Shown: one piece after another, positions 1 through 16,089 of the stretch | Layout of the letters: every line of letters starts with the position of its first letter | Position numbering within the stretch: position 1 is the stretch's first letter | DNA from: Candidatus Micrarchaeia archaeon | GTDB taxonomy: Archaea; Micrarchaeota; Micrarchaeia; Micrarchaeales; Micrarchaeaceae | Length of the DNA: 16,138 bases | Assembly (NCBI GenBank): GCA_049964795.1 | Contig: JBMFWY010000016.1 | Span: forward strand, 1 to 16,138 | Direction: 5' to 3' | Translations under genes and position numbers: made by a program | Notes under the pieces: model-generated | The model's database searches: none | Seen by the model: only the letters and a program-made list of their open reading frames with translations | Told to the model about the DNA's origin: nothing

Positions 1-7
1 GCCCGAA

Positions 8-274
8 ATGACAGAGCTTCCAGAGCATATGCACTATGATACTACTGACAGCGACGCTGAAGCAATGCAACTGCTTGAAAATTCCATATATAGCTATCTG
101 TATTTCATGATGTTGTATTCAACAAGCCACGACCCCAAGATGCTTTTTGAAAGATGCATTGCTCTTGGCGCAAACAAAATGGAGTTCGAGGCGTTTAGCA
201 GGAGCTTTGCGCGCTCATACGAATATACCAAGAGAAAATATCTTGCAAGCCGCAGCGCAAAGCTAAGGCAGTGA
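8..274 (+). CDS. hypothetical protein (possibly 5'-truncated by the window edge)
   Basis: 88-aa ORF. The frame stays open upstream to the window edge (ccc gaa ATG). It converges on the Mrp gene with a 10-bp gap. No recognisable motif. Confidence 0.55.
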   Translation: MTELPEHMHYDTTDSDAEAMQLLENSIYSYLYFMMLYSTSHDPKMLFERCIALGANKMEFEAFSRSFARSYEYTKRKYLASRSAKLRQ

Positions 275-284
275 TGAATGATTG

Positions 285-1073
285 CTAGCGCGGAAGTTTT
301 GAAGCTATTCCAACAAATGCCTCTTTTATTGAAGGATCTTCAAGCACCGGTATCATGCCCTTGTCACTCATCTCGTTGAACTTCTCGCTCTTGCCTATCG
401 TGCCGAGCATCTCGCAGCCTAGTGCGTCCGCAACCTCTTTGCCGCCCATCGGCTCACCAGCAGACATGTTTTCAACAACTCCCAGTATTGCAATACCAAG
501 CCTCTTTGCCATATTGCCAGATCTTATTGCATTTACGCTTGCTATGTGTTGCGGAGTCGTGACAAGCACAAAGCCATCTAGGTCAAGCAGCTGCATTATA
601 GAAAGAGGTGCATCGCTTGTGCCAGGAGGCAGATCTATAATCAGGTAATCAAGGCTGCCCCATTCGGTATTCTCGAGAAATTCCCCTATCATCTTTGCAA
701 TAACAGGGCCCCTCCATATAATCGGTCTTTTGATGTCATCAAGGTACATTGCGGTGGAGATAACTTTTGCACCCTTTACTTCAAGAGGCCGCAAGGGGTA
801 ACTTTCATCACGCCTTGAATCGACCCCGAGGAAAAGGGTAAGGTTGGGGCAGTCTACATCTGCATCAAGTATTCCAACGCTGTAACCCATTTCCTTCAGT
901 GCAAAGGCAAGGTTGACAGATACCGTAGTTTTGCCCACGCCACCTTTTGCGCTGTATATGCCTATTTTATGCTTTATCCCCTTCAGCGCGTCCTTTACCC
1001 TTTTTTTCTGATCAAGAACCTTTAGAAATGATGGATGTGTAATATCGACATTAGTGTTCTGTTCTTCAGCCAT
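285..1073 (-). CDS. Mrp/NBP35/ApbC-family P-loop ATPase (SIMIBI class), lacking the C-terminal CxxC motif
   Basis: Deviant Walker A SAKGGVGKTT, LDADVDCPN, family signature IIWRGP, WGSLDYLIIDLPPGTSD, VTTPQ and GVVENMS. Start moved to the ATG at 1073 (MAEEQ; preceded by GTGGT) because the 1211 start overlaps the divergent gene. Confidence 0.9.
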   Translation of the reverse strand: MAEEQNTNVDITHPSFLKVLDQKKRVKDALKGIKHKIGIYSAKGGVGKTTVSVNLAFALKEMGYSVGILDADVDCPNLTLFLGVDSRRDESYPLRPLEVKGAKVISTAMYLDDIKRPIIWRGPVIAKMIGEFLENTEWGSLDYLIIDLPPGTSDAPLSIMQLLDLDGFVLVTTPQHIASVNAIRSGNMAKRLGIAILGVVENMSAGEPMGGKEVADALGCEMLGTIGKSEKFNEMSDKGMIPVLEDPSIKEAFVGIASKLPR

Positions 1074-2117: not shown

Positions 2118-3641
2118 ATGTCTGAAGATCAGGGCAATGCTTCACCGGGTGATGTAAAGCCAGCCGTTAATCCAGAGGCAAAAGAGCACTGGAAGAAAGG
2201 CAATCAGCTGTTTGAGGAGAGCAAGTTCGATGAAGCAGTGCAGGAATATAGCGAGGCGCTGAAGATCGATAGCAGCTATGCCGATGCATATTTTAACAGG
2301 GCGCTTACTGAGCGCGTAAAAGGCGACTTCATAAGTGCCAAAAAGGATCTTGAGAAGGTCATGGAACTTCAGCCAAAAACGCCTGATGCTCCGTTGCTGA
2401 TGGGCGACATAGCAGAATCGAACAGTGATTTTATAGGGGCAAGATACTGGTATGAAAAGGCGCTTGCCAGCGATCCAAACTATGCTGAAGCAAAGAACCG
2501 GCTTGAGCATATAGATTCGCTTATACATTTCAGCGAGCCTTCAGAAGGCAAATCAGGCTCGCAGATAGAAGTTCAGAAGCTCAACCAGCAGGAGGAAAAG
2601 GAGGTAATAGAGGAAGGTCAGATAAAGCGCCTGCCATTTTACAAATCCAACATAAAGTTCGATGCGGTGATAGGGCTCAAGAAGGCAAAGGAATACCTGC
2701 AGAACAACATAGTGCTTGCAATAATAAGGCCCGACCTGTTCAAGAAATACGGCAAGAAGATGGGCATTGGCTTGCTCCTGTACGGACCGCCTGGCACTGG
2801 CAAAACCCACATAATAAATGCCGTTGCAGGAGAAGCCGGCGCAAATGTAATACTTGCGAGGATTAACCAGATTGTTGACATGTATACCGGCAATACAGAG
2901 AAGAACCTCCACGCCATATTCGAGCAGGCGAGAAAGAACACGCCATGTGTAATAGCGTTTGACGAGGTTGACGCTCTTGGCGTAAAGAGAAGCGGAGGTG
3001 GAGAAGGCGGCGAAAGCTCTGCGATGAGGCTTGCTGTCAACCAGTTTCTAGTAGAGATGAACGGGATAGAAGCAAATCCAGAGGGAATTTACGTTATCGG
3101 TACGACAAACCAGCCTTGGGACATAGATCCTGCGCTCAAGAGGAGCGGAAGGTTTAGCGATACGCTGTACATAGGTCCTCCTTCATATAAGGACAGGAAG
3201 GCAATGTTCAAGTTCTATGTGCGCAATAAGCCCCACAAGAACCTTGCATGGGGAAGGCTTGCACGTGCCACGACAGGGTTCTCAGGCGCAGACATAGAGC
3301 AGCTTGTCGAAAAAGCAATAATGAGGCCGCTGCTGCATGAGTATGAGACAAAGCAGGGGCGTGAGCTTACGACCAAGGACATACTTGCAGTATTCAAAGA
3401 CAAGGATTTTGGGGGCAGCTCCCTTGACGAATGGTACCAAATGGTAAAGAAGGATGTAATAAGCAAGACCGAAACGCAGATAGTCGATGGCAAGAAGCAG
3501 GAGATAGTAAAGGAAGGCAAGCTCGATGCGCAGGAGAAGATATTATACAAGGCAATGGTTAAAGATATAAAAAAGAACACGTCAAGTATAAGGATACTGA
3601 TGAAAAAGCTTATCAGGTGGTGGGCACTCCACCTATTCTGA
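2118..3641 (+). CDS. TPR-repeat-containing classical AAA ATPase (single AAA module)
   Basis: About 3 TPRs at aa ~21-130 (GNQLFEESKFDEAVQEYSEALKID; AYFNRA...AKKDLEKVMELQP; MGDIAE...YEKALASDP). Walker A GPPGTGKT, pore loop DMYTG, Walker B IAFDEVD, SRH TTNQPWDIDPALKRSGRF and GFSGADI. GAGGA RBS upstream; T-tract after the stop. Confidence 0.92.
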   Translation: MSEDQGNASPGDVKPAVNPEAKEHWKKGNQLFEESKFDEAVQEYSEALKIDSSYADAYFNRALTERVKGDFISAKKDLEKVMELQPKTPDAPLLMGDIAESNSDFIGARYWYEKALASDPNYAEAKNRLEHIDSLIHFSEPSEGKSGSQIEVQKLNQQEEKEVIEEGQIKRLPFYKSNIKFDAVIGLKKAKEYLQNNIVLAIIRPDLFKKYGKKMGIGLLLYGPPGTGKTHIINAVAGEAGANVILARINQIVDMYTGNTEKNLHAIFEQARKNTPCVIAFDEVDALGVKRSGGGEGGESSAMRLAVNQFLVEMNGIEANPEGIYVIGTTNQPWDIDPALKRSGRFSDTLYIGPPSYKDRKAMFKFYVRNKPHKNLAWGRLARATTGFSGADIEQLVEKAIMRPLLHEYETKQGRELTTKDILAVFKDKDFGGSSLDEWYQMVKKDVISKTETQIVDGKKQEIVKEGKLDAQEKILYKAMVKDIKKNTSSIRILMKKLIRWWALHLF

Positions 3642-3689: not shown

Positions 3690-4250
3690 TCAAGCCTTCA
3701 TTTCGGCCTTCTTCAAGCCCCTCTTGTATGCGGCATGAGTTATGAAGAAGGCAACAAGCACTGCAGCAAGCACGATTATCATAGCATTGCCCCTGTCATT
3801 CCTGTCGCCTTTTAGTATCCCGACGGCGCTTCTGAAGCCTTCCGCATATATCGCTATGTCCCACACAAGCGCGATTGTGTTGTATATTGCAAGAAATATA
3901 CTCATAAAATTGCGTCTTTTTGCTGCAACCATAATGGATTGTATCGTTATTACGGTGCCAAATCCTATAATGAGCAATCCAAATACCAGGAAATTGAAGG
4001 CCATCGCGTATTCGACAACCCCTGGCCCAACGTAGCCGACCGCGTATGAGAGCAGGCTTATCACTATTATCATCACATAGGTTATTCCAACGAAGCCCAA
4101 GCCCAGCCCCGCATATGATGCTACAAGGCTAAAGCTCCCTTTGTCTGCCTTCCTCAGAATGCCTATGTTATAACCGCTTGCATAGGCGTCCCATACCGAT
4201 ATTACAAAATCGAAAATAAGTATTAACGCAGCTATTATACCTCCGAGCAT
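3690..4250 (-). CDS. uncharacterised integral membrane protein (~5 TM helices)
   Basis: Five hydrophobic segments separated by short basic loops. TTTAATA TATA-like element upstream on the minus strand. Confidence 0.8.
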   Translation of the reverse strand: MLGGIIAALILIFDFVISVWDAYASGYNIGILRKADKGSFSLVASYAGLGLGFVGITYVMIIVISLLSYAVGYVGPGVVEYAMAFNFLVFGLLIIGFGTVITIQSIMVAAKRRNFMSIFLAIYNTIALVWDIAIYAEGFRSAVGILKGDRNDRGNAMIIVLAAVLVAFFITHAAYKRGLKKAEMKA

Positions 4251-4385
4251 ATAAATCCATGTTATTAGGGCAATAAAGTATTAAATAACTTTTTGGGATT
4301 TTGGCCCATTACAACTGCCAGCAACTAGCTAACAAACCTATTTATAAATTGCTGACCATTTATAATTGCTAATTTTGTGGTTACA

Positions 4386-5483
4386 ATGGATGTGAGTGGA
4401 GAGATTGTAAGCATGTTTATCTATGATTGCGGGGTCAAGTTCAGCGAGGAGCAGCTGAAGGGCCTTCTAAAGAACCAGGAGGAGTTTTCGCACTACGAAT
4501 ATACACATCCTTCTCCAGAAGAGATTGCAACATTTAGCGAGCCTTCGATATTCAACCTCAAGGACATAGTATATGATGCAGGCCAGAATTCTGAACAGAT
4601 AAGATTCAAGGTGCAGGTTTCCATTTATGTAACTGGTATATTCTCCATAAGGTTCAGATACCAGTTTAATGGCCCCATAACTGTGATGCAGAAGCTTACC
4701 TTTGACAAGGGTATAAAGGATTTCCTTGTCGCAGCCTCCGCAAAGGAGCGCGCCAAAGTGGAGAAAGCGCTTTCCCGTATATCCCAAATAAGTGCGAGCA
4801 CCATAAACGAAGCTTATAGGTTCTATTTTATAAATACAGACAAGCGCAAACTTGCCGAGAAAGACAAAAAGATGATAGCTGGATTGCTGATAGATGAGCA
4901 GAATACTGATATGCTTTCAAATTCATACATAGAGGAAGTTACAAAAAGGAGCATAATATACAATGATGACGACATAATATATGTTGGATGGGAAGGCGCA
5001 GTGATGGTCGATACTGAAAACGCGTACGAGCAGGAGCTTACCGTTACAGAAATAGCAAATGCGCAGCTCCTCGAGATGCGCATCTACTATGATTCCATCT
5101 CAAAGACCATTACGCATGCAGAATCCTTATTACCTTCAATGCTCACTCTGTCAAAGCGTGGCAAGCTTAAAAGGCTCAATATGGAGCTTGGAAGGTTCTA
5201 CGGCAGGACGCAGGACATGATGAATACCGCAAATGATACAATTGTGGGATTTGGAGAATGGTACCTATCAAGGCTTTACGCGTTGTATGATGATGCGTTC
5301 AAGCTCGGCTTCTGGCGTGCTTCCCTGGAGAAGCAGCTTGACATACTTGACAAAAGGCGCAATTTTATAGCGGATGTGCTAAGGAGCCAGTGGGACGAGG
5401 TGCTCGAGTGGATTGTCATACTTCTCATAGTTGTAGAAGTTGTTGTGGAAGTGTTATTCCTTGCAGGTGTAAAGCCTCTCTAA
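4386..5483 (+). CDS. RMD1/DUF155-like protein with a C-terminal TM helix
   Basis: C-terminal LEWIVILLIVVEVV resembles the RMD1-family LEWIIIxLIxxE motif and follows a long helical region (LSRLYALYDDAFKLGFWRASLEKQL). ATG 4386, preceded by GTGGT, is preferred over GTG 4377. Confidence 0.65.
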   Translation: MDVSGEIVSMFIYDCGVKFSEEQLKGLLKNQEEFSHYEYTHPSPEEIATFSEPSIFNLKDIVYDAGQNSEQIRFKVQVSIYVTGIFSIRFRYQFNGPITVMQKLTFDKGIKDFLVAASAKERAKVEKALSRISQISASTINEAYRFYFINTDKRKLAEKDKKMIAGLLIDEQNTDMLSNSYIEEVTKRSIIYNDDDIIYVGWEGAVMVDTENAYEQELTVTEIANAQLLEMRIYYDSISKTITHAESLLPSMLTLSKRGKLKRLNMELGRFYGRTQDMMNTANDTIVGFGEWYLSRLYALYDDAFKLGFWRASLEKQLDILDKRRNFIADVLRSQWDEVLEWIVILLIVVEVVVEVLFLAGVKPL

Positions 5484-5534: not shown

Positions 5535-8267
5535 CTAATCCATGTTATGAGATTTGCCAAGGTTTGCAGTCATAAGCTTTTTATCAAGTTTGCCCCTAAG
5601 CAGGTCAAAGTTGTCCTTCATGAACGCTTTCAGCAACGGCTCTGTCTTTACCGCTTTTACCTCATTCCCATTTACTATGAGCTCAGCATACACGCCGCCC
5701 TTCAAACCGTCATCTACAGGTATGTTTATCCTGTTTAGGTATGGATTGCTTTCAGAATCCTGCATTGCAGGTGCTGTTACAATGAACCTGCTTCCTGTGT
5801 CAACATCGCTAAACTGGTGTATGTGGCCATTGACAACAAGCTTTGTTTTGCTGTCGTCTCTTGCCCTCTCTGCAGTTCTTGCAAGCCCACTTATCCTTCT
5901 TCCGCCTTCATGCTCTGCCCTTATGCGCATGAAATCCTTGGCATCTTTGTAGTCAACGCTTACCACGTCACCGCCATATTCGCTGCCAGGTATAATTTTC
6001 ATGTTTGAAATGAGCTTTTCAGCGCGTTCCCCTGCCCTGCCTTTGATGTAGCTTTCGAACACGCTGCCAAGCCTTGTGGCTTCGTCGTACTGCCAACCTC
6101 CTGTGGTCTTGTTGTAGTGGTTGCCAGAAACTATTATGGCAATGCCCCCTTTTGCAAGTACTTCATATACAAGTCCGCTGGTATAATCGGCAAAGACCTT
6201 TGACTGTTCCTCAATGTTCTGTATTACCTTAAACCTGTCCTCTTCCATTACCTCGGCCATGAAGCTATCTATAAATGCGCTATCATAGCCCATCCCCTCA
6301 AGTTCTTCCCTCATGCTTTCATGATAGCCTATTTTGCTAACCTCTCTGGGCACATTCTTGAAGTTGTTGTAGTTTCCCTCTATGTTGTCCCCTGCAAGGA
6401 CGAGAACATCTATCTGCTTCTCCGAGAGTTTTTCAACAACCTTGCCAAGCAGGCGCAGATCAGCGTAATTGCCAACGTGTACATCGCTTATGACCCCAAG
6501 GTGTATGCTCTTGGTGCCTTTTTCTGTTTTTTCATACTTTACAAGCGACTTTATAAAATTTTCATCAACGAAATTTTGAGCAAGATCGTCTTGTTTCATC
6601 TCTGAAGGCAGTTTGGCCTTTAATACGGACATCTCCAGCTCTTCCTTGCTGCCCAAACTGTTTCCATTCTTTGGTGCGTTCTTTGCTTCACGCATATTAT
6701 CCAATACACTGTGCATATTGGCAAGCTCTTTTGCATACCTTATTGAAGAATAAACGCCAAGCAATTTGTCTGTAAGGTCTGTGTGCACAATGCCCTCCTT
6801 CTCTACCCTTAGGAGATGCGCGCCTACGCCTATAGGCCCTTTCTGTGTTGCCGTTGTAACATCTGTCCTATAACCCCTGTCTGCCAGCTCTGATGCTTTC
6901 TTCTTGTCCCAGAATGGCCCGCATGCAAGAGCCGCTGTTATGGGTCCTCTGTTTACCATGGGTTCAAGAGTAAAAGAGGAATGCATGTTGTGGCCCGAAA
7001 TCAATATGTTAATGCTCTGCGCTTCAGCATCATACTCTTCCAAGCCGTTTTCGGTGCGCATGTACAATTTTTCTATTATTGAATCATTGCTTTTCGTGCT
7101 GTACCTGCTTTGCGTTCCCATTACTGCAATGTTTAGCATTCCTCCTCTGAACTTTTTCTCGTACACCTCGAAATTGGAATAGAAGCTTTCAATGCTACTA
7201 TTAGCTTGTGTGCCATCTGCGCTTTCAAACCTCGATTGTACGATTATCCTGCGCCTAAATCCGAATGTATAGTCTATGAGCTCCTTGTAATAGGCGCTTA
7301 CATACCTTTCTATGAGCGAAGCGGCTTCCCTGTCTGGCAGCGCGTTGTGCGTATATAGCAGTGCCTGCTTTATCTTTGCGGTTTCCTTTGTTTTTGCCTC
7401 CTTCTCTAGCGCTTCCTTGTGTCTTTTTGTGAGTCTACTTATCGCATTTGCCACCTTCTTAGCCTTTTCAGAAAGCTTCAAGTATTCTTCAGTATCTTCT
7501 TTTCCAAGGCCTGCCAGGGCGTCGTTTATTTCTTTCTGCTTGTCCATCTCTTTATCTAGAATTTCCTTTACCTTTTTGGCAGAGGTGCGCTGCAGCGCGT
7601 TCAAGTAAAGCCTTTCCAATGGCTTAATCATATTTGACAAATCGTTGTATTCGTTGAGCCTCTGCTGTATTTTTATCTTAAGGTTGGTTTTCTCCTTAAT
7701 GAGCTCCTGGTTTTTTGGATCTCCTTTCAACTGCTCCATGAGCTTTGAATATGAGGTCTTTGCAACCTTTATTATTGCACTTACTCCAGCAATCTCCTCG
7801 TTTACCTCGTCTATGCGCTTCTTCAGGCTGTCGATGTAAAACAGGTATTCTTCCGCGACTTTTCTTTCAAGCGTTTTTTTGTTTGCCCAGTCCTCCGGGC
7901 CCAAGGTGTAGATTATCTTGGCATATGAAGGCAGCTCTCCAAGTATCCTTATCATGTCTGGCTTCATCGTTGCAGCAGCATCGTCAACGCTGTCAACACC
8001 TTTCTCCAAGACTTTTATCTTGTATATGCTTTGCACCGAGCCCTGCTTCGGTATTTCTGGAAATAGTCCCCCTATTATGACCATCAAATCGGGCTTCTCG
8101 TACGGCTCTAGTCTATGTAAGTATTCTGCGAGGCCAACAAGATTGTCCTTGCTTTTGTACAGCGTTCCGCCACCTATATCAGAAATAATGAGTGTGCTAA
8201 AGTGCTTTTTTCCCTTATCAAAAATCTCTCTCTTATCATTATGGAAATCGACCGAAGTTCCCCCCAC
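5535..8267 (-). CDS. 910-aa tandem calcineurin-like metallophosphoesterase (degenerate N-terminal domain with coiled-coil insert; intact C-terminal domain)
   Basis: C-domain motifs: ISDVHVG (D595/H597), LAGDNIEG, SGNHY, AEH, NGHIH. Degenerate N-domain equivalents: IISDIGGG, IIGGLFPE, LGPED, ISGHNMH. K/E-rich heptad region at aa ~130-305. GTG start with GGGG RBS and a TTTAAAAA box upstream. Confidence 0.8.
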   Translation of the reverse strand: MGGTSVDFHNDKREIFDKGKKHFSTLIISDIGGGTLYKSKDNLVGLAEYLHRLEPYEKPDLMVIIGGLFPEIPKQGSVQSIYKIKVLEKGVDSVDDAAATMKPDMIRILGELPSYAKIIYTLGPEDWANKKTLERKVAEEYLFYIDSLKKRIDEVNEEIAGVSAIIKVAKTSYSKLMEQLKGDPKNQELIKEKTNLKIKIQQRLNEYNDLSNMIKPLERLYLNALQRTSAKKVKEILDKEMDKQKEINDALAGLGKEDTEEYLKLSEKAKKVANAISRLTKRHKEALEKEAKTKETAKIKQALLYTHNALPDREAASLIERYVSAYYKELIDYTFGFRRRIIVQSRFESADGTQANSSIESFYSNFEVYEKKFRGGMLNIAVMGTQSRYSTKSNDSIIEKLYMRTENGLEEYDAEAQSINILISGHNMHSSFTLEPMVNRGPITAALACGPFWDKKKASELADRGYRTDVTTATQKGPIGVGAHLLRVEKEGIVHTDLTDKLLGVYSSIRYAKELANMHSVLDNMREAKNAPKNGNSLGSKEELEMSVLKAKLPSEMKQDDLAQNFVDENFIKSLVKYEKTEKGTKSIHLGVISDVHVGNYADLRLLGKVVEKLSEKQIDVLVLAGDNIEGNYNNFKNVPREVSKIGYHESMREELEGMGYDSAFIDSFMAEVMEEDRFKVIQNIEEQSKVFADYTSGLVYEVLAKGGIAIIVSGNHYNKTTGGWQYDEATRLGSVFESYIKGRAGERAEKLISNMKIIPGSEYGGDVVSVDYKDAKDFMRIRAEHEGGRRISGLARTAERARDDSKTKLVVNGHIHQFSDVDTGSRFIVTAPAMQDSESNPYLNRINIPVDDGLKGGVYAELIVNGNEVKAVKTEPLLKAFMKDNFDLLRGKLDKKLMTANLGKSHNMD

Positions 8268-8421: not shown

Positions 8422-8443
8422 TTGAAATATGCTGCGTGATCTA

Positions 8444-10318
8444 ATGCCTGAAAAGAAAGTTGGGATAAGCAATATCTACGTAAGGAATCCCCACATAAAG
8501 ATAAGCTCCGAAGAGCTCGCAAAGGCGATAAGCGCAAAGGATTTTATAGCAGAGATTGAAGCAATTGCAAGGGAGGAACAGCGCGTTATAAACGAAAAGA
8601 TAAAGGAGCGCGAGGAACTTGCAGCAATAAGCTACCCTTATGGCCCGATAGAAGACTTTTTGGGCCCAAACCACAGTGGCGAGACCCTGGAAGATCTTAT
8701 TGTATTATCGAAAAAACTTGGAGGATTCATGGAAGAACTGTCTTCAGCAACCGATATCGATACGGCAATGAAATTGTCTGCTTTCCTGGTAGAGATGGGC
8801 GTCACAACAGAGCAATCAATAAGTAAAATAGCAGAGTCTGTGCAGGTCAGCCCCCAAAAGATAAGCGAAGGCCTCGGCATAAATTCCATAACCCTTCCAA
8901 GCTTCGCTGAAAGCAATGCCACCTTTGTAGCAGATATGCTTTATGATTTTGCGGTGGATATTTCAAGCAGCGAAGACAAGCTCGCAAAGCTTAGGGCCAA
9001 GCCACTAAAGACGATATTCTATTCAAGCGAGAGCAATCCTGACAGGAGCAGACCTGAGCTTGAGATTGCACTTGAACTTGTATATTCGAGGCTTCTTGAA
9101 GAAGATCCCGAAAAATACCGTGAGGTAATAAGCGCTTTAAGGCACGCGATGCTGTTTCCGACAACATATGCATGTGTCGGGGGTGTGATGTCTCTGGATC
9201 AAGCTGCAAGAAGCGTTAGGGAAAACGAGTCTGCGCTAGTAATATCTGCTGATACTGCAATATACGATCCAAAGCTCGCCCCTCATGCTGAAACCACTCA
9301 GGGTGCTGGCGCTGTATTATATTGGATTACGACAGATCCAGAAATTGCGGTAATAGACTATGAAGGAAGGGGCGCATATCATCTATCCTTGGCAGATTTT
9401 ACTAAATACCTACAGGAGCATCCGGTAGTCTACGGCAAGTTCTCGGAAATAATATACGTATATATGGTATCAAAGGCCATGGCGGCTAGCAAGGTTGGCA
9501 TGCTGCCATTGAGCATGCTGAAATTCATAGTGGAGCACGTGCCATTCCCAAAGCAGGCGCTCTATCTTGCAAGCTTCCTATTCGTACACGAACTCAGGAA
9601 TTTTGACAAAGCGAAATTCGAGGAAATTCAATCCCGCAGCTCAGTAGGCAAAGAACCTCTTGCAGGATTTTCAAGCCTTACGGATCTGCTGGACAGCAAG
9701 TTCAAGGGGTTCAATAGCGAAAGGAACATGGAGGAGCAGGAATTCATCAAATACATAGAGAACGACAAGGACATAAAAACCTATTGGGCCTGGCTTGCCC
9801 GCATAAGGAAGCAGCCTGAATTTGAAAAATTCAAGAAGGATCTTATGATAGACAAGGCACTTGTGCTTCCTTCTAATACAGGCAACGTGTATTCATCAGC
9901 GTCGCTGCAATCTTTTGCAAGCTTGCTCAACGAGCTGGCAAAAGACCCAGAGATATTAAGCGAGGAAAAAATAAAGCTTAATGGAGTAATGGGTGGCTAT
10001 GGCAGCGGCGCACAGGCTGTAGCTATGCCAGTAGAGATAGAAACCACAAAAGAGAAGCTAGTAAGTAACATTTCGATAAAATCCTCTACGATTCCAATAA
10101 ATGCTGATCAGTACATACTGCTTCACAAATGGCTTATAGCCGGCAGCGAAAGCGAGAGGTCAAGCAATAGCGGCAACCTGTTCAAGAAAAGCCTTGAGCT
10201 TCTGAGGCGTGAAACAATGCCCGATGGATTCTACATCATAAAGAGGAACATCGATGGAACTGGCGAATACTGCTACGTAAGCAACGGGGTTGAAAGAAAG
10301 CTGAGGATAAGGTATTGA
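8444..10318 (+). CDS. mvaS: hydroxymethylglutaryl-CoA synthase (MvaS/haloarchaeal-like type) with large insertions
   Basis: VGISNIYVRNP, KISEGLG, SESNPDRSRP (catalytic Glu), YACVGG (catalytic Cys), ISADTAIY, ETTQGAGA, PVVYGKFS, HVPF (catalytic His), GNVYSSA and GYGSGAQA. ATG 8444 (GTGAT RBS, correct TATA spacing) is preferred; 8429 is the alternative start. Confidence 0.85.
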   Translation: MPEKKVGISNIYVRNPHIKISSEELAKAISAKDFIAEIEAIAREEQRVINEKIKEREELAAISYPYGPIEDFLGPNHSGETLEDLIVLSKKLGGFMEELSSATDIDTAMKLSAFLVEMGVTTEQSISKIAESVQVSPQKISEGLGINSITLPSFAESNATFVADMLYDFAVDISSSEDKLAKLRAKPLKTIFYSSESNPDRSRPELEIALELVYSRLLEEDPEKYREVISALRHAMLFPTTYACVGGVMSLDQAARSVRENESALVISADTAIYDPKLAPHAETTQGAGAVLYWITTDPEIAVIDYEGRGAYHLSLADFTKYLQEHPVVYGKFSEIIYVYMVSKAMAASKVGMLPLSMLKFIVEHVPFPKQALYLASFLFVHELRNFDKAKFEEIQSRSSVGKEPLAGFSSLTDLLDSKFKGFNSERNMEEQEFIKYIENDKDIKTYWAWLARIRKQPEFEKFKKDLMIDKALVLPSNTGNVYSSASLQSFASLLNELAKDPEILSEEKIKLNGVMGGYGSGAQAVAMPVEIETTKEKLVSNISIKSSTIPINADQYILLHKWLIAGSESERSSNSGNLFKKSLELLRRETMPDGFYIIKRNIDGTGEYCYVSNGVERKLRIRY

Positions 10319-11656: not shown

Positions 11657-12787
11657 TCACGCGTCTTTAATTATTTTCCTATCCTTGCCCTTGTAAAATT
11701 CGGAAAGCAGGATCTGCATGCTTTTTGCGAATTTCTCCTGTTCATCTCTTCTTTCAATGTCATTGCTCGATTGGAGCCTGTTTTTGTCTACCTGCTTAGG
11801 CAACCCAAAGGCACTTGCATGAGGATGGCCGTTTCCTCCCATGCTTTGCGCAAAAGGCACCGAATCTATTTTACTTTCGCCTATTACCCTTATGTGTGCT
11901 GTGCCCCTCTGCGCTTTTACATAAATTGCCATTTCCGCTCCAGCAGCGTTCGGCAGATTGAACAGAAAGCTGCAGCCATCGTTTGTCTGCAAGGAGCCGC
12001 TATAATTAAAACCTATGACAGCTTTGTGCCCATTGAAATCTATAGCATAGGAATTATCTTTAAGCTCGCTTTTAAGTACGTTCTGCTTTTCTTCATATAA
12101 TCTAGCTTTTTCCTGAATAAACTCGTTTTTATCAAAATCGTAGGGATCCGCAACGAATGCCTCAACCATCTTAAAAAGCCCTTCCTGTATTCCTGTATTG
12201 TCATCAAGATATGAAGCTATCGCCATGCTCACTTTGTCAAGCTTCTTGTCTACTATGGGATCTTTATTCCTAAGGTTGAAATCCGAAATATGTGCAACAT
12301 AAGCTATGTGCTCTATCTCTTGATCGTACTTGCCAAGCGCTTTTGCAATGTGCTCAGCAACAAGCTCTGCACCACAGTAATCCTTGTTTTCTCCTGCAAT
12401 CACGTAATCTGCGTGTTCAACTAGAAACTGCATTACACTGCTTGAGCTAATAGGGTGGTGATCAAGCCACACGATGATGTTATTACCTTGCTTTAGCGTT
12501 TCAAAAATTTGCTTATATGTGGCAAGTTCAGCTTCGCCAAAGCTGAGATCGGAGAAGATCACGACTGAATTAACAGGGTTTACCTTTTTTATTATTGCTA
12601 AAGATTCTTCTATGGCCTTTTTTTCAAAATCCGAGAATATAACCTTTTTTACTCTGCCGCCTGGGAAAACGTACTCCAAAATTGCGGGAGCAGCGACCCC
12701 ATCAACGTCCTTCAAGTGCGTTACTGAAACAATGTCTTTGCCATCTATTATGTCCGCCATGCCTCTTTTAGCAATAGGTTCGTACAT
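11657..12787 (-). CDS. DHH/DHHA1-family phosphoesterase (NrnA/NrnB-like)
   Basis: Motifs THLKDVDG, SDLS, WLDHH, HISDF and the DHHA1 motif MGGNGHPHASAF. Alternative start at 12760 (MADIID, GAGG RBS). Confidence 0.88.
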   Translation of the reverse strand: MYEPIAKRGMADIIDGKDIVSVTHLKDVDGVAAPAILEYVFPGGRVKKVIFSDFEKKAIEESLAIIKKVNPVNSVVIFSDLSFGEAELATYKQIFETLKQGNNIIVWLDHHPISSSSVMQFLVEHADYVIAGENKDYCGAELVAEHIAKALGKYDQEIEHIAYVAHISDFNLRNKDPIVDKKLDKVSMAIASYLDDNTGIQEGLFKMVEAFVADPYDFDKNEFIQEKARLYEEKQNVLKSELKDNSYAIDFNGHKAVIGFNYSGSLQTNDGCSFLFNLPNAAGAEMAIYVKAQRGTAHIRVIGESKIDSVPFAQSMGGNGHPHASAFGLPKQVDKNRLQSSNDIERRDEQEKFAKSMQILLSEFYKGKDRKIIKDA

Positions 12788-15981: not shown

Positions 15982-16089
15982 TGCCGCAGGTCGGATTTGA
16001 ACCGACGACATTCCGGTTTCTGCTTCTTCATCAAACATCTCAAAGAAGCCTTACTTCAGCCGGACGCTCTCCCACTGAGCTACTGCGGC
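15982..16089 (-). tRNA. tRNA-Phe(GAA) with a 36-nt intron at position 37/38 (intron 16018..16053)
   Basis: Acceptor GCCGCAG/CTGCGGC+A, D arm GCTC/GAGC, anticodon stem TCCGG/CCGGA with loop CTGAAG^A after intron removal, T arm GTCGG-TTCAAAT-CCGAC. TTTAAA box upstream on the minus strand. Confidence 0.95.

Follow-up and report, generated by a model that had tools for sequence, protein, structure and literature searches.

The stretch of DNA analysed here (the window; 16,138 nucleotides, positions 1 to 16,138 of contig JBMFWY010000016.1 from a Candidatus Micrarchaeia archaeon, assembly GCA_049964795.1) encodes on its reverse strand a 910-residue protein that very probably comprises two metallophosphoesterase halves, an N-terminal one that is dead and carries a helical arm, and a C-terminal one that is live. 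As a whole, the protein is best explained as a stand-alone nucleic-acid phosphodiesterase, in which the dead half would act as a scaffold and the arm would bind a substrate or a partner; we assign to this reading a probability of roughly 45%. A preliminary description of the gene, made from the sequence without database searches, had suggested a single-chain pseudo-dimer of Mre11/DP1-like phosphoesterases. Our analysis supports that interpretation in large part, with DP1 (the small subunit of PolD) and the related polymerase B-subunits providing a better comparison than Mre11.

The gene is a single open reading frame (ORF) with a GTG start and without internal stop. Its conservation was analysed in an alignment of 45 full-length members of the family, 847-1126 amino acids (aa) long and 18-58% identical to the query, from which a full-length AlphaFold2 model was calculated (predicted local distance difference test, pLDDT, 87.4; predicted template-modelling score, pTM, 0.87). 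The fold, the conservation of the ligands, the range of the family and the absence of operon partners were all established computationally. The parts of the gene are as follows; coordinates of the SDIG, GGL, GPED and GHNMH strings and of motifs I-V were verified by translation.

5535..8267, reverse strand: whole ORF, 910 aa plus stop codon; full-length homologs at 58-59% identity, 45 full-length relatives aligned
7899..8216, reverse strand: N-terminal half, part 1 (aa 18-123), strands and helices equivalent to motifs I-III, with eroded ligands
8172-8183, reverse strand: eroded SDIG (aa 29-32) of the N-terminal half
8064-8072, reverse strand: eroded GGL (aa 66-68) of the N-terminal half
7890-7901, reverse strand: eroded GPED (aa 123-126) of the N-terminal half
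7266..7898, reverse strand: helical K/E-rich insertion, the arm (aa 124-334), following the GNH-equivalent; delimited by DSSP of the model and by composition
6663..7265, reverse strand: N-terminal half, part 2 (aa 335-535), which completes the phosphoesterase beta-sandwich; DP1 alignments span aa 18-504
6981-6995, reverse strand: GHNMH (aa 425-429), within part 2 of the N-terminal half
6513..6662, reverse strand: interdomain linker (aa 536-585) with a conserved K-L-P-S-E motif
6600-6614, reverse strand: the K-L-P-S-E motif (aa 552-556) within the linker, conserved in the 45 members
5613..6512, reverse strand: C-terminal half, intact metallophosphoesterase domain (aa 586-885), identified by PF00149, ligand conservation and the structural match to DP1
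6477-6485, reverse strand: motif I, DVH (D595-V-H597), C-terminal half
6387-6392, reverse strand: motif II, GD (G626-D627), C-terminal half
6117-6125, reverse strand: motif III, GNH (G715-N716-H717), C-terminal half
5910-5912, reverse strand: motif IV, H (H786), C-terminal half
5817-5828, reverse strand: motif V, GHIH (G814-H815-I-H817), C-terminal half
5538..5612, reverse strand: C-terminal helix (aa 886-899) and disordered tail (aa 886-910 together; pLDDT <50 for aa 907-910)

The C-terminal half (C-half) possesses all five ordered calcineurin-like motifs (DxH, GD, GNH, H and GHxH), which the preliminary description had correctly placed in the C-terminal third of the protein. It matches PF00149 at aa 590-660 with 32.5 bits against a gathering cut-off of 21.5, this being the only model in Pfam, the generic Metallophos one, that recognizes the protein; generic Metallophos models match 22 of the 45 members (E <= 0.1). 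The conservation of the motifs is nearly complete: D595, H717, H786 and H817 are kept in all 45 members and H597, G626 and D627 in 44, N716 is present in 89%, and at position 815 29 of them have H and 15 have D, while Q688 and E729 are also invariant. Thus the two-metal site of the C-half is live and under strong purifying selection. As such conservation of all seven metal-ligand positions across 45 divergent members would be unexpected otherwise, it argues for catalysis. It also makes it highly improbable that the protein has a purely structural or scaffolding role, with both domains serving as binding modules like Vps29 or the B-subunits. Such a role would agree with the presence of Vps29 and B-subunits among the structural matches (Z ~14-15) and with the coiled-coil arm, which suggests protein-protein contacts, but non-catalytic relatives, such as the N-terminal half itself, have lost the ligands that the C-half retains.

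In structure comparison the best match of the C-half is DP1 (6t8h_A; Z 17.6, root mean square deviation (rmsd) 3.0 A over 219 residues with 19% identity), followed by MJ0936 (Z 16.8) and Mre11 (Z 14.5-16.3). Profile-profile comparison gives DP1 as the best sequence match as well: with hhalign and profiles built from the relatives' own genes (20 DP1, 24 Mre11-like), the C-half aligns with DP1 at 93.7% probability (E 2e-7, 65 columns, motifs I-II) and with Mre11 at 63% (E 6.8e-5, 53 columns). Motif II, with its GDxx(D/E)G form, presumably resembles that of DP1 too. The C-half has a net charge of -7, and no stand-alone short homologs of it were found at E <= 0.001 among 2,432 candidates of a word search. 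With respect to a possible capping domain and Rad50-binding helices of the Mre11 type, only ~90 residues follow motif V, and some structural alignments with Mre11 reach aa 903-910.

The N-terminal half (N-half) repeats the order of the motifs with the metal ligands eroded (SDIG, GGL, GPED, GHNMH), as had been noticed in the sequence, and the family alignment reveals that the ligand positions are degenerate throughout. Of the 45 members, 23 have E and 13 have D at position 30, 31 have G at position 32, and 25 have G and 12 have E at position 67; position 124 varies, and the H at position 426 is found in only 25. Other residues of the N-half are near-invariant, namely G45, R107 (91%), Y120 (93%), D126 and N129 (98% each), and K270 likewise. 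Moreover, aa 18-129 form the best-conserved segment of the whole protein, with a mean pairwise identity of 32% as compared to 25% for the C-half and 19% for the insertion, i.e. the dead domain is under even stronger constraint than the live one.

In sequence comparison, hhalign aligns columns 15-145 of the N-half with the C-half with motifs I-III in register (69% probability, E 4.4e-5); the remainder of the N-half gave no significant match to the C-half. Modelled alone from a 20-row alignment, the N-half attains pLDDT 82.4 and pTM 0.80 and is predicted to form a complete metallophosphoesterase sandwich, interrupted by the helices of aa 124-334. Its best match among 48,161 representative chains of the PDB, in a structural search independent of Foldseek, is DP1 (5ihe_A; Z 16.8, rmsd 3.4 A, 228 residues, model 1..487), and the next ones are the B-subunit of human Pol delta (Z 14.9), MJ0936 (13.5), the B-subunit of Pol epsilon (13.0) and Mre11 (12.9). 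Rescoring of the top 1000 Foldseek matches again placed DP1 first (8ppt_A, Z 17.7; seven DP1 entries at Z 15.6-17.7), with the B-subunits of Pol delta/zeta at Z 13.4-15.0 and Mre11 at no more than 13.2. The structural alignment with DP1 comprises ~228 residues with 14% identity and spans aa 18-504 across the insertion. Since the fold is kept in the model and the metal ligands are lost, the N-half can be regarded as a pseudo-enzyme member of the calcineurin-like superfamily.

To predict how the halves pack, aa 18-535 and aa 540-905 (the latter with the linker) were submitted as two separate chains, with a 20-row alignment each. The interface score ipSAE reached 0.85, 0.84 and 0.83, against 0.02 for the best control, and the predictions contained 192-207 contacts, with partner pLDDT no lower than 81 and with 90% or more of the contacts agreeing between runs. 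The mark for this score is reached by 58 of 80 solved complexes and by 2 of 110 mismatched pairs, counts that are approximate for the present case, in which our own alignments were used. The predicted interface brings strands aa 429-438 (just after GHNMH) and 490-499 of the N-half together with aa 818-828 (just after GHIH) and 869-877 of the C-half; because these strands are equivalent elements of both sandwiches, the arrangement would be pseudo-two-fold. The listed interface residues include none from the insertion (aa 124-334) and no metal ligand of the C-half. Thus the pseudo-dimer suggested earlier is upheld in prediction, by the full-length model (pTM 0.87) and by the split chains (ipSAE 0.84 vs 0.02). 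The linker seems to be part of the same arrangement: K552 (80%), P554 (89%), S555 (89%) and E556 (93%) are conserved in the family, and the linker helix together with the KLPSE motif is predicted to dock on the N-half, at its helix aa 99-107 and at aa 40-44, with contacts to aa 40-41, 44, 88-92, 96, 99-104 and 107. K102, P103 and R107 would accordingly owe their conservation to a predicted role in holding the linker motif.

The insertion that follows the GNH-equivalent of the N-half was originally described as a single run of about 175 aa of K/E-rich heptads. Its location and composition are real (residues 130-335 contain 16.5% K and 12.1% E, as compared to 10.3% and 8.9% in the whole protein, with a net charge of about +8), but in the AlphaFold2 model it is ~210 aa long and almost wholly helical over aa 124-334, and divided into several helices (124-143, 145-182, 187-227, 230-254, 260-289, 294-306 and 313-334), five of them of 22-41 residues, of which only some show a clear hydrophobic period of 3.5 residues. 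An arm on the dead half is therefore retained from the earlier proposal, and a long coiled coil is not: aa 138-228 superpose on the antiparallel coiled-coil hairpins of SMC, prefoldin and Rad50 (Z ~10, rmsd 1.4-2.5, 80-89 residues), and the model indicates a bundle or a pair of hairpins of ~40 residues each, with no long coiled coil of the Rad50 type. The insertion is present in all 45 aligned members, between N129 and G336, with a length of 132-344 residues (median 231). A distant relative, P0063 (580 aa), matches the family profile with 99.9% probability (E 2.4e-37) over aa 366-885 only; it has 142 residues before the match and none opposite aa 513-577, which leaves no space for the insertion or for the KLPSE linker, and suggests that the tandem core can exist without the arm. 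P0063 and two further distant relatives, P0066 (774 aa) and P0087 (823 aa), are located on unclassified "archaeon" metagenome contigs.

Comparison with known systems places the protein near the DP1 class and outside it. DP1, the small subunit of PolD, is a 3'-5' proofreading exonuclease, and the comparison concerns its phosphodiesterase domain. Like DP1 (5ihe, 6t8h, 8ppt), which is the best structural match of both halves, the C-half retains the two-metal ligands. Unlike DP1, however, none of the 45 members matches PF04042 at E <= 0.1, whereas the true DP1 of the same genome does so with 49.1 bits; the model contains no OB (oligonucleotide/oligosaccharide-binding) fold or N-terminal DP1 domain, as the sandwich of the N-half begins at aa 22 and aa 500-585, preceding the C-half, form a helical linker without a beta-barrel; there is no adjacent DP2 gene; and one chain contains two phosphoesterase domains and the ~210-aa helical insertion. 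The 910-aa protein is thus DP1-like in shape and yet fails membership of DP1 by PF04042, OB fold and DP2 adjacency. The B-subunits of eukaryotic polymerases (Pol delta p50/Pol31, Pol alpha, Pol epsilon) are inactivated phosphoesterases, and they come second to DP1 in structural similarity to the N-half (Z 13.0-15.0), which like them has lost the catalytic ligands and kept the fold and a conserved binding surface. They differ in that they bind the catalytic subunit of a polymerase, while the dead domain of the present protein shares its chain with an active one and lacks an OB domain.

The original likening to both DP1 and Mre11 holds for the phosphoesterase nuclease fold, but not as parity between the two, since both halves are nearer to DP1/B-subunits, clearly so in the case of the dead one. 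Mre11/SbcD nucleases work as dimers with the coiled-coil Rad50/SbcC, and our protein resembles them in the fold, the two-domain unit and the associated coiled coil. Nonetheless, it matches no Mre11 or SbcD family of NCBIfam, its profile match to Mre11 is weaker than that to DP1, and its predicted interface is formed by the strands that follow motif V and by the final ones, whereas the Mre11 dimer uses N-terminal helices. The arm also differs from Rad50 in being short, internal to the chain and devoid of an ATPase head or zinc hook, and there is no conserved ATPase neighbor. In agreement with the preliminary description, which saw no ATPase motif, neither Pfam nor NCBIfam gave a match to any P-loop or ATPase family.

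Structure-level neighbors are also found among phosphoesterases of phages and Bacillus that contain helical or coiled-coil segments, some of them in clusters carrying PF27386 YonJ_N and PF27387 YonJ_CC. The ESM Atlas neighbors are phage phosphoesterases with template-modelling (TM) scores of 0.55-0.70, normalised by the row's own length, those in BFVD match with E down to 4e-7, and the YydB model 9a6c_B has Z 12.7 over 231 residues. These proteins differ in being single-domain (290-500 aa), and their scores are no better than those of generic phosphoesterases. PF27386 and PF27387 are absent from the Pfam scan results of the 910-aa protein and the 45 members, obtained with a copy of Pfam whose inclusion of them is unverified; the matches in PHROGs, to phage phosphoesterases or exonucleases, were weak and confined to motif I; and among titles and abstract openings we found no functional paper on YonJ, YydB, YydD or yonJ/SPbeta. 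We treat the likeness to phage phosphoesterases as a lead only.

Sequence searches delineate a lineage-restricted family that has not been previously described and for which we found no characterised family. A word-index search retrieved four close proteins: the window's own protein (99% identity), two 922-aa "hypothetical proteins" from Micrarchaeia and "Marsarchaeota" metagenome-assembled genomes with 58-59% identity to the query, and one fragment. When 1.84 billion representatives were searched exhaustively by HMMER with a profile of these proteins, 66 had E <= 0.001 and 28 of them E <= 1e-30, and most of the 66 are 850-1000 aa long and aligned end to end. The recurrence of the architecture in the 45 aligned relatives indicates that the pattern is not due to chance. 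The source names are "hypothetical protein" throughout, except for "calcineurin-like phosphoesterase family protein" on the 272-aa representative P0070, and NCBIfam contains no family that matches the 910-aa protein at E <= 0.01; together with the purely generic Pfam match, this bears out the earlier expectation that the protein belongs to no already characterised family. A search of PDB sequences with the family profile yielded coiled-coil noise plus Mre11 (E 0.28) and DP1 (E 0.37-0.51), and with the single sequence nothing meaningful. Titles and abstract openings in the literature, including those on metallophosphoesterases of Micrarchaeota, revealed nothing on this family. In three homologs we found one in-frame stop each (TAG in G124:C14:16466-19180, TGA in G094:C1:7398-10160, TAA in G116:C38:81248-83779), which may represent pseudogenes or assembly errors.

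The genome (724,721 bases, 34 contigs, 91.6% complete) contains a second full-length copy, P0006 (933 aa, 27% identity over the whole length; contig 2, L002:919-3720, reverse strand), with the same pattern of a dead N-half and a live C-half. Both copies belong to one clade of 12 rows with 95% support in the FastTree tree, which points to duplication within the family-level lineage. Directly after P0006 there is a gene for an ABC-type ATPase (~300 aa), a pairing that is not conserved at other loci. Among 301 sampled genomes of the phylum, 52 have matches at E <= 1e-5, including short weak ones in G022, G052, G180 and G244. Strong matches are found in 26 of 74 genomes of the archaeon's own family f1 (G022 counted), 21 of 54 of the sister family f2, and 1 of 3 of f13 from the same class. 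Within genera the distribution is consistent, the gene being present in 4/4, 5/5 and 3/3 genomes of g17, g29 and g4 and in 0/7 and 0/4 of g5 and g7, and several genomes that are 95-97% complete lack it. The family thus hardly occurs outside one order of Micrarchaeota-like DPANN archaea, within which it is patchy. Its divergence is high, with a mean column identity of 20% and a median terminal branch of 0.52.

Such patchiness, even in near-complete genomes of one family, the strong divergence of the sequences and the lineage-specific duplicate within a 725-kb genome could also be expected of a conflict or defence effector, antiviral or inter-archaeal, i.e. a nuclease licensed via the dead half and the arm, whose chemistry would overlap with that of a stand-alone nucleic-acid phosphodiesterase. 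The nearest structures in ESM Atlas and BFVD, those of phage phosphoesterases, would fit as well, but such proteins dominate these libraries anyway. The consistent presence within genera agrees with vertical inheritance accompanied by losses, no partner gene is conserved, and housekeeping genes make up the surroundings. PADLOC-DB 2.0 gave only weak coiled-coil matches (arms of JetC and LmuB, E 8e-6 to 3e-3; also E1-E2) for three of the five members tried, and no effector model. On balance we regard an effector role as unlikely.

Genomic neighborhood analysis was carried out for 21 loci (up to ~7 kb per side, less at contig ends) and revealed no conserved neighbor. The notion of an operon partner was rejected, as the most widespread neighbor cluster occurs in only 5 of the 21 loci. 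In the window the gene is flanked by a convergent ORF of 368 aa without annotation and by a divergent HMG-CoA-synthase-like gene, amid housekeeping genes. Elsewhere the genome encodes DP1 and DP2 (together on contig 9), PolB, Rad50 with a zinc hook (contig 1), an Mre11-like protein (contig 2), SMC, and a PdeM-like phosphoesterase beside an Lhr-type helicase. An Mre11-like gene is present in 25/25 relatives and DP1 in 20/25, regardless of the presence of a gene of the 910-aa type. The idea that the protein replaces DP1, Mre11 or Rad50 was therefore rejected; with the canonical DP1/DP2, PolB, Mre11-like and Rad50 genes located elsewhere, it is an addition and no substitute.

A number of observations weigh against a nucleic-acid phosphodiesterase. 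The metallophosphoesterase fold is common to nucleases, nucleotide and cyclic-nucleotide phosphodiesterases, and lipid and protein phosphatases; DP1, MJ0936 and Mre11 are within ~1 Z unit of each other, i.e. effectively tied, in comparisons with the modelled C-half, the sequence likeness of which to DP1 is limited to motifs I-II; the N-half has no significant sequence match to the relatives' DP1 and Mre11 profiles (E 0.33 and 0.05); neither Pfam nor the model revealed an OB fold or any other recognised domain that binds nucleic acid; no neighbor in the 21 loci points to DNA metabolism; and the packing of the halves as a pseudo-dimer is a product of structure predictors. The Foldseek matches include the cyclic-nucleotide phosphodiesterase Rv0805 (rank 3), the Ap4A hydrolase SapH (rank 14), GpdQ (rank 33) and purple acid phosphatases. 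The high ranks of Rv0805, SapH and GpdQ, together with the tie between DP1 and MJ0936, a small archaeal phosphodiesterase, for the C-half (Z 17.6 vs 16.8), would suit a phosphodiesterase of small molecules or nucleotide signals (cyclic or linear oligonucleotides, Ap4A-type compounds, pAp), with the dead half as a ligand-sensing or regulatory module, whose strongly conserved surface (D126, N129, R107, Y120) could bind the ligand. However, the conservation of K102, P103 and R107 is already explained by the predicted holding of the linker, the dead half is nearer to DP1/B-subunits than to small phosphodiesterases (Z 17.7 vs 13.5 for MJ0936), and the surroundings of the gene in the 21 loci contain no conserved genes for cyclases, nucleotide signals or sensors. 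We consider this alternative rather improbable, though less so than that of a defence effector.

We therefore favor a stand-alone nucleic-acid phosphodiesterase. In this reading, in which the packing of the domains is predicted and the substrate, the role of the arm and the cellular process are inferred, the gene product would be a cytoplasmic single-chain pseudo-dimer, both domains of which are closest in shape to the PolD DP1/B-subunit class. The C-terminal domain with its complete two-metal site would be the catalyst, and the most likely reaction would be phosphodiester cleavage of nucleic acid, by exo- or endonuclease action on DNA or RNA ends. The N-terminal domain, devoid of ligands, would be a rigid partner that packs laterally on the active domain via equivalent beta-strands and clamps the conserved KLPSE linker motif, and the basic arm of ~210 aa after the dead motif III would probably bind substrate or a partner, or mediate self-association.

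Of the other genes in the window, the HMG-CoA-synthase-like ORF (8429-10318, forward strand; 629 aa) is covered by models over ~aa 131-551, with ~130 extra N-terminal and ~80 extra C-terminal residues, and may be a fusion or an extended form. A 507-aa protein (2118-3641, forward strand) combines TPR repeats at its N-terminus with a classic AAA domain, with matches to FtsH, CDC48 and CdvC below cut-offs and to IetA-type models in PADLOC; immediately upstream of it lies a gene for RNase HI (1585-2055). The ORFs at 3690-4250 (reverse strand, 186 aa) and 4377-5483 (forward strand, 368 aa) have no match in Pfam, NCBIfam or PADLOC, and both recur beside the homolog in genome G100 (clusters c15 and c16). 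DHH/RecJ-like proteins with weak matches to archaeal RecJ models are encoded at 11657-12787 (reverse strand) and, outside the window, at L005:2285-3304 (reverse strand), the latter directly adjoining the Mre11-like gene on contig 2. Finally, a tRNA-Gln(TTG) gene at 15982-16089 (reverse strand; 94 nucleotides by ARAGORN, 108 by Rfam) is long enough for an intron and lies within an AT-rich tail (GC 0.33), with no ORF of at least 80 aa beyond 15040.

In a more far-reaching and doubtful scenario, this order-specific family would have arisen by tandem duplication of a DP1-type proofreading phosphoesterase, one copy of which lost its activity, turned into a built-in scaffold resembling a B-subunit and then gained a basic coiled-coil arm, resulting in an autonomous single-chain exonuclease recruited via the arm to DNA or to partners of the SMC/Rad50 type. 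It might thereby provide ultra-small DPANN genomes with an extra activity in DNA-end processing or nucleotide salvage, found nowhere else. The inactivation of one copy would then be analogous to the independent loss in eukaryotic B-subunits, with descent from a polymerase subunit only hypothesised.

The protein is a natural case in which a single chain contains the same enzyme fold twice, once active and once dead, with the dead copy the more conserved, and it parallels, within one polypeptide, the inactivation of the phosphoesterase in eukaryotic polymerase B-subunits. As a new architectural variant of a well-known superfamily in one DPANN order, it is relevant to phosphoesterases, pseudo-enzymes, archaeal replication and repair, and DPANN biology, and it touches the unresolved history of DP1-type phosphoesterases. 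As we found no annotation of this family anywhere, a biochemical assay together with a structure would establish a new branch within a superfamily that has been studied very thoroughly. Since a 725-kb genome keeps two copies of ~2.7 kb (~0.75% of its DNA), a trivial function seems unlikely in these symbiotic archaea.

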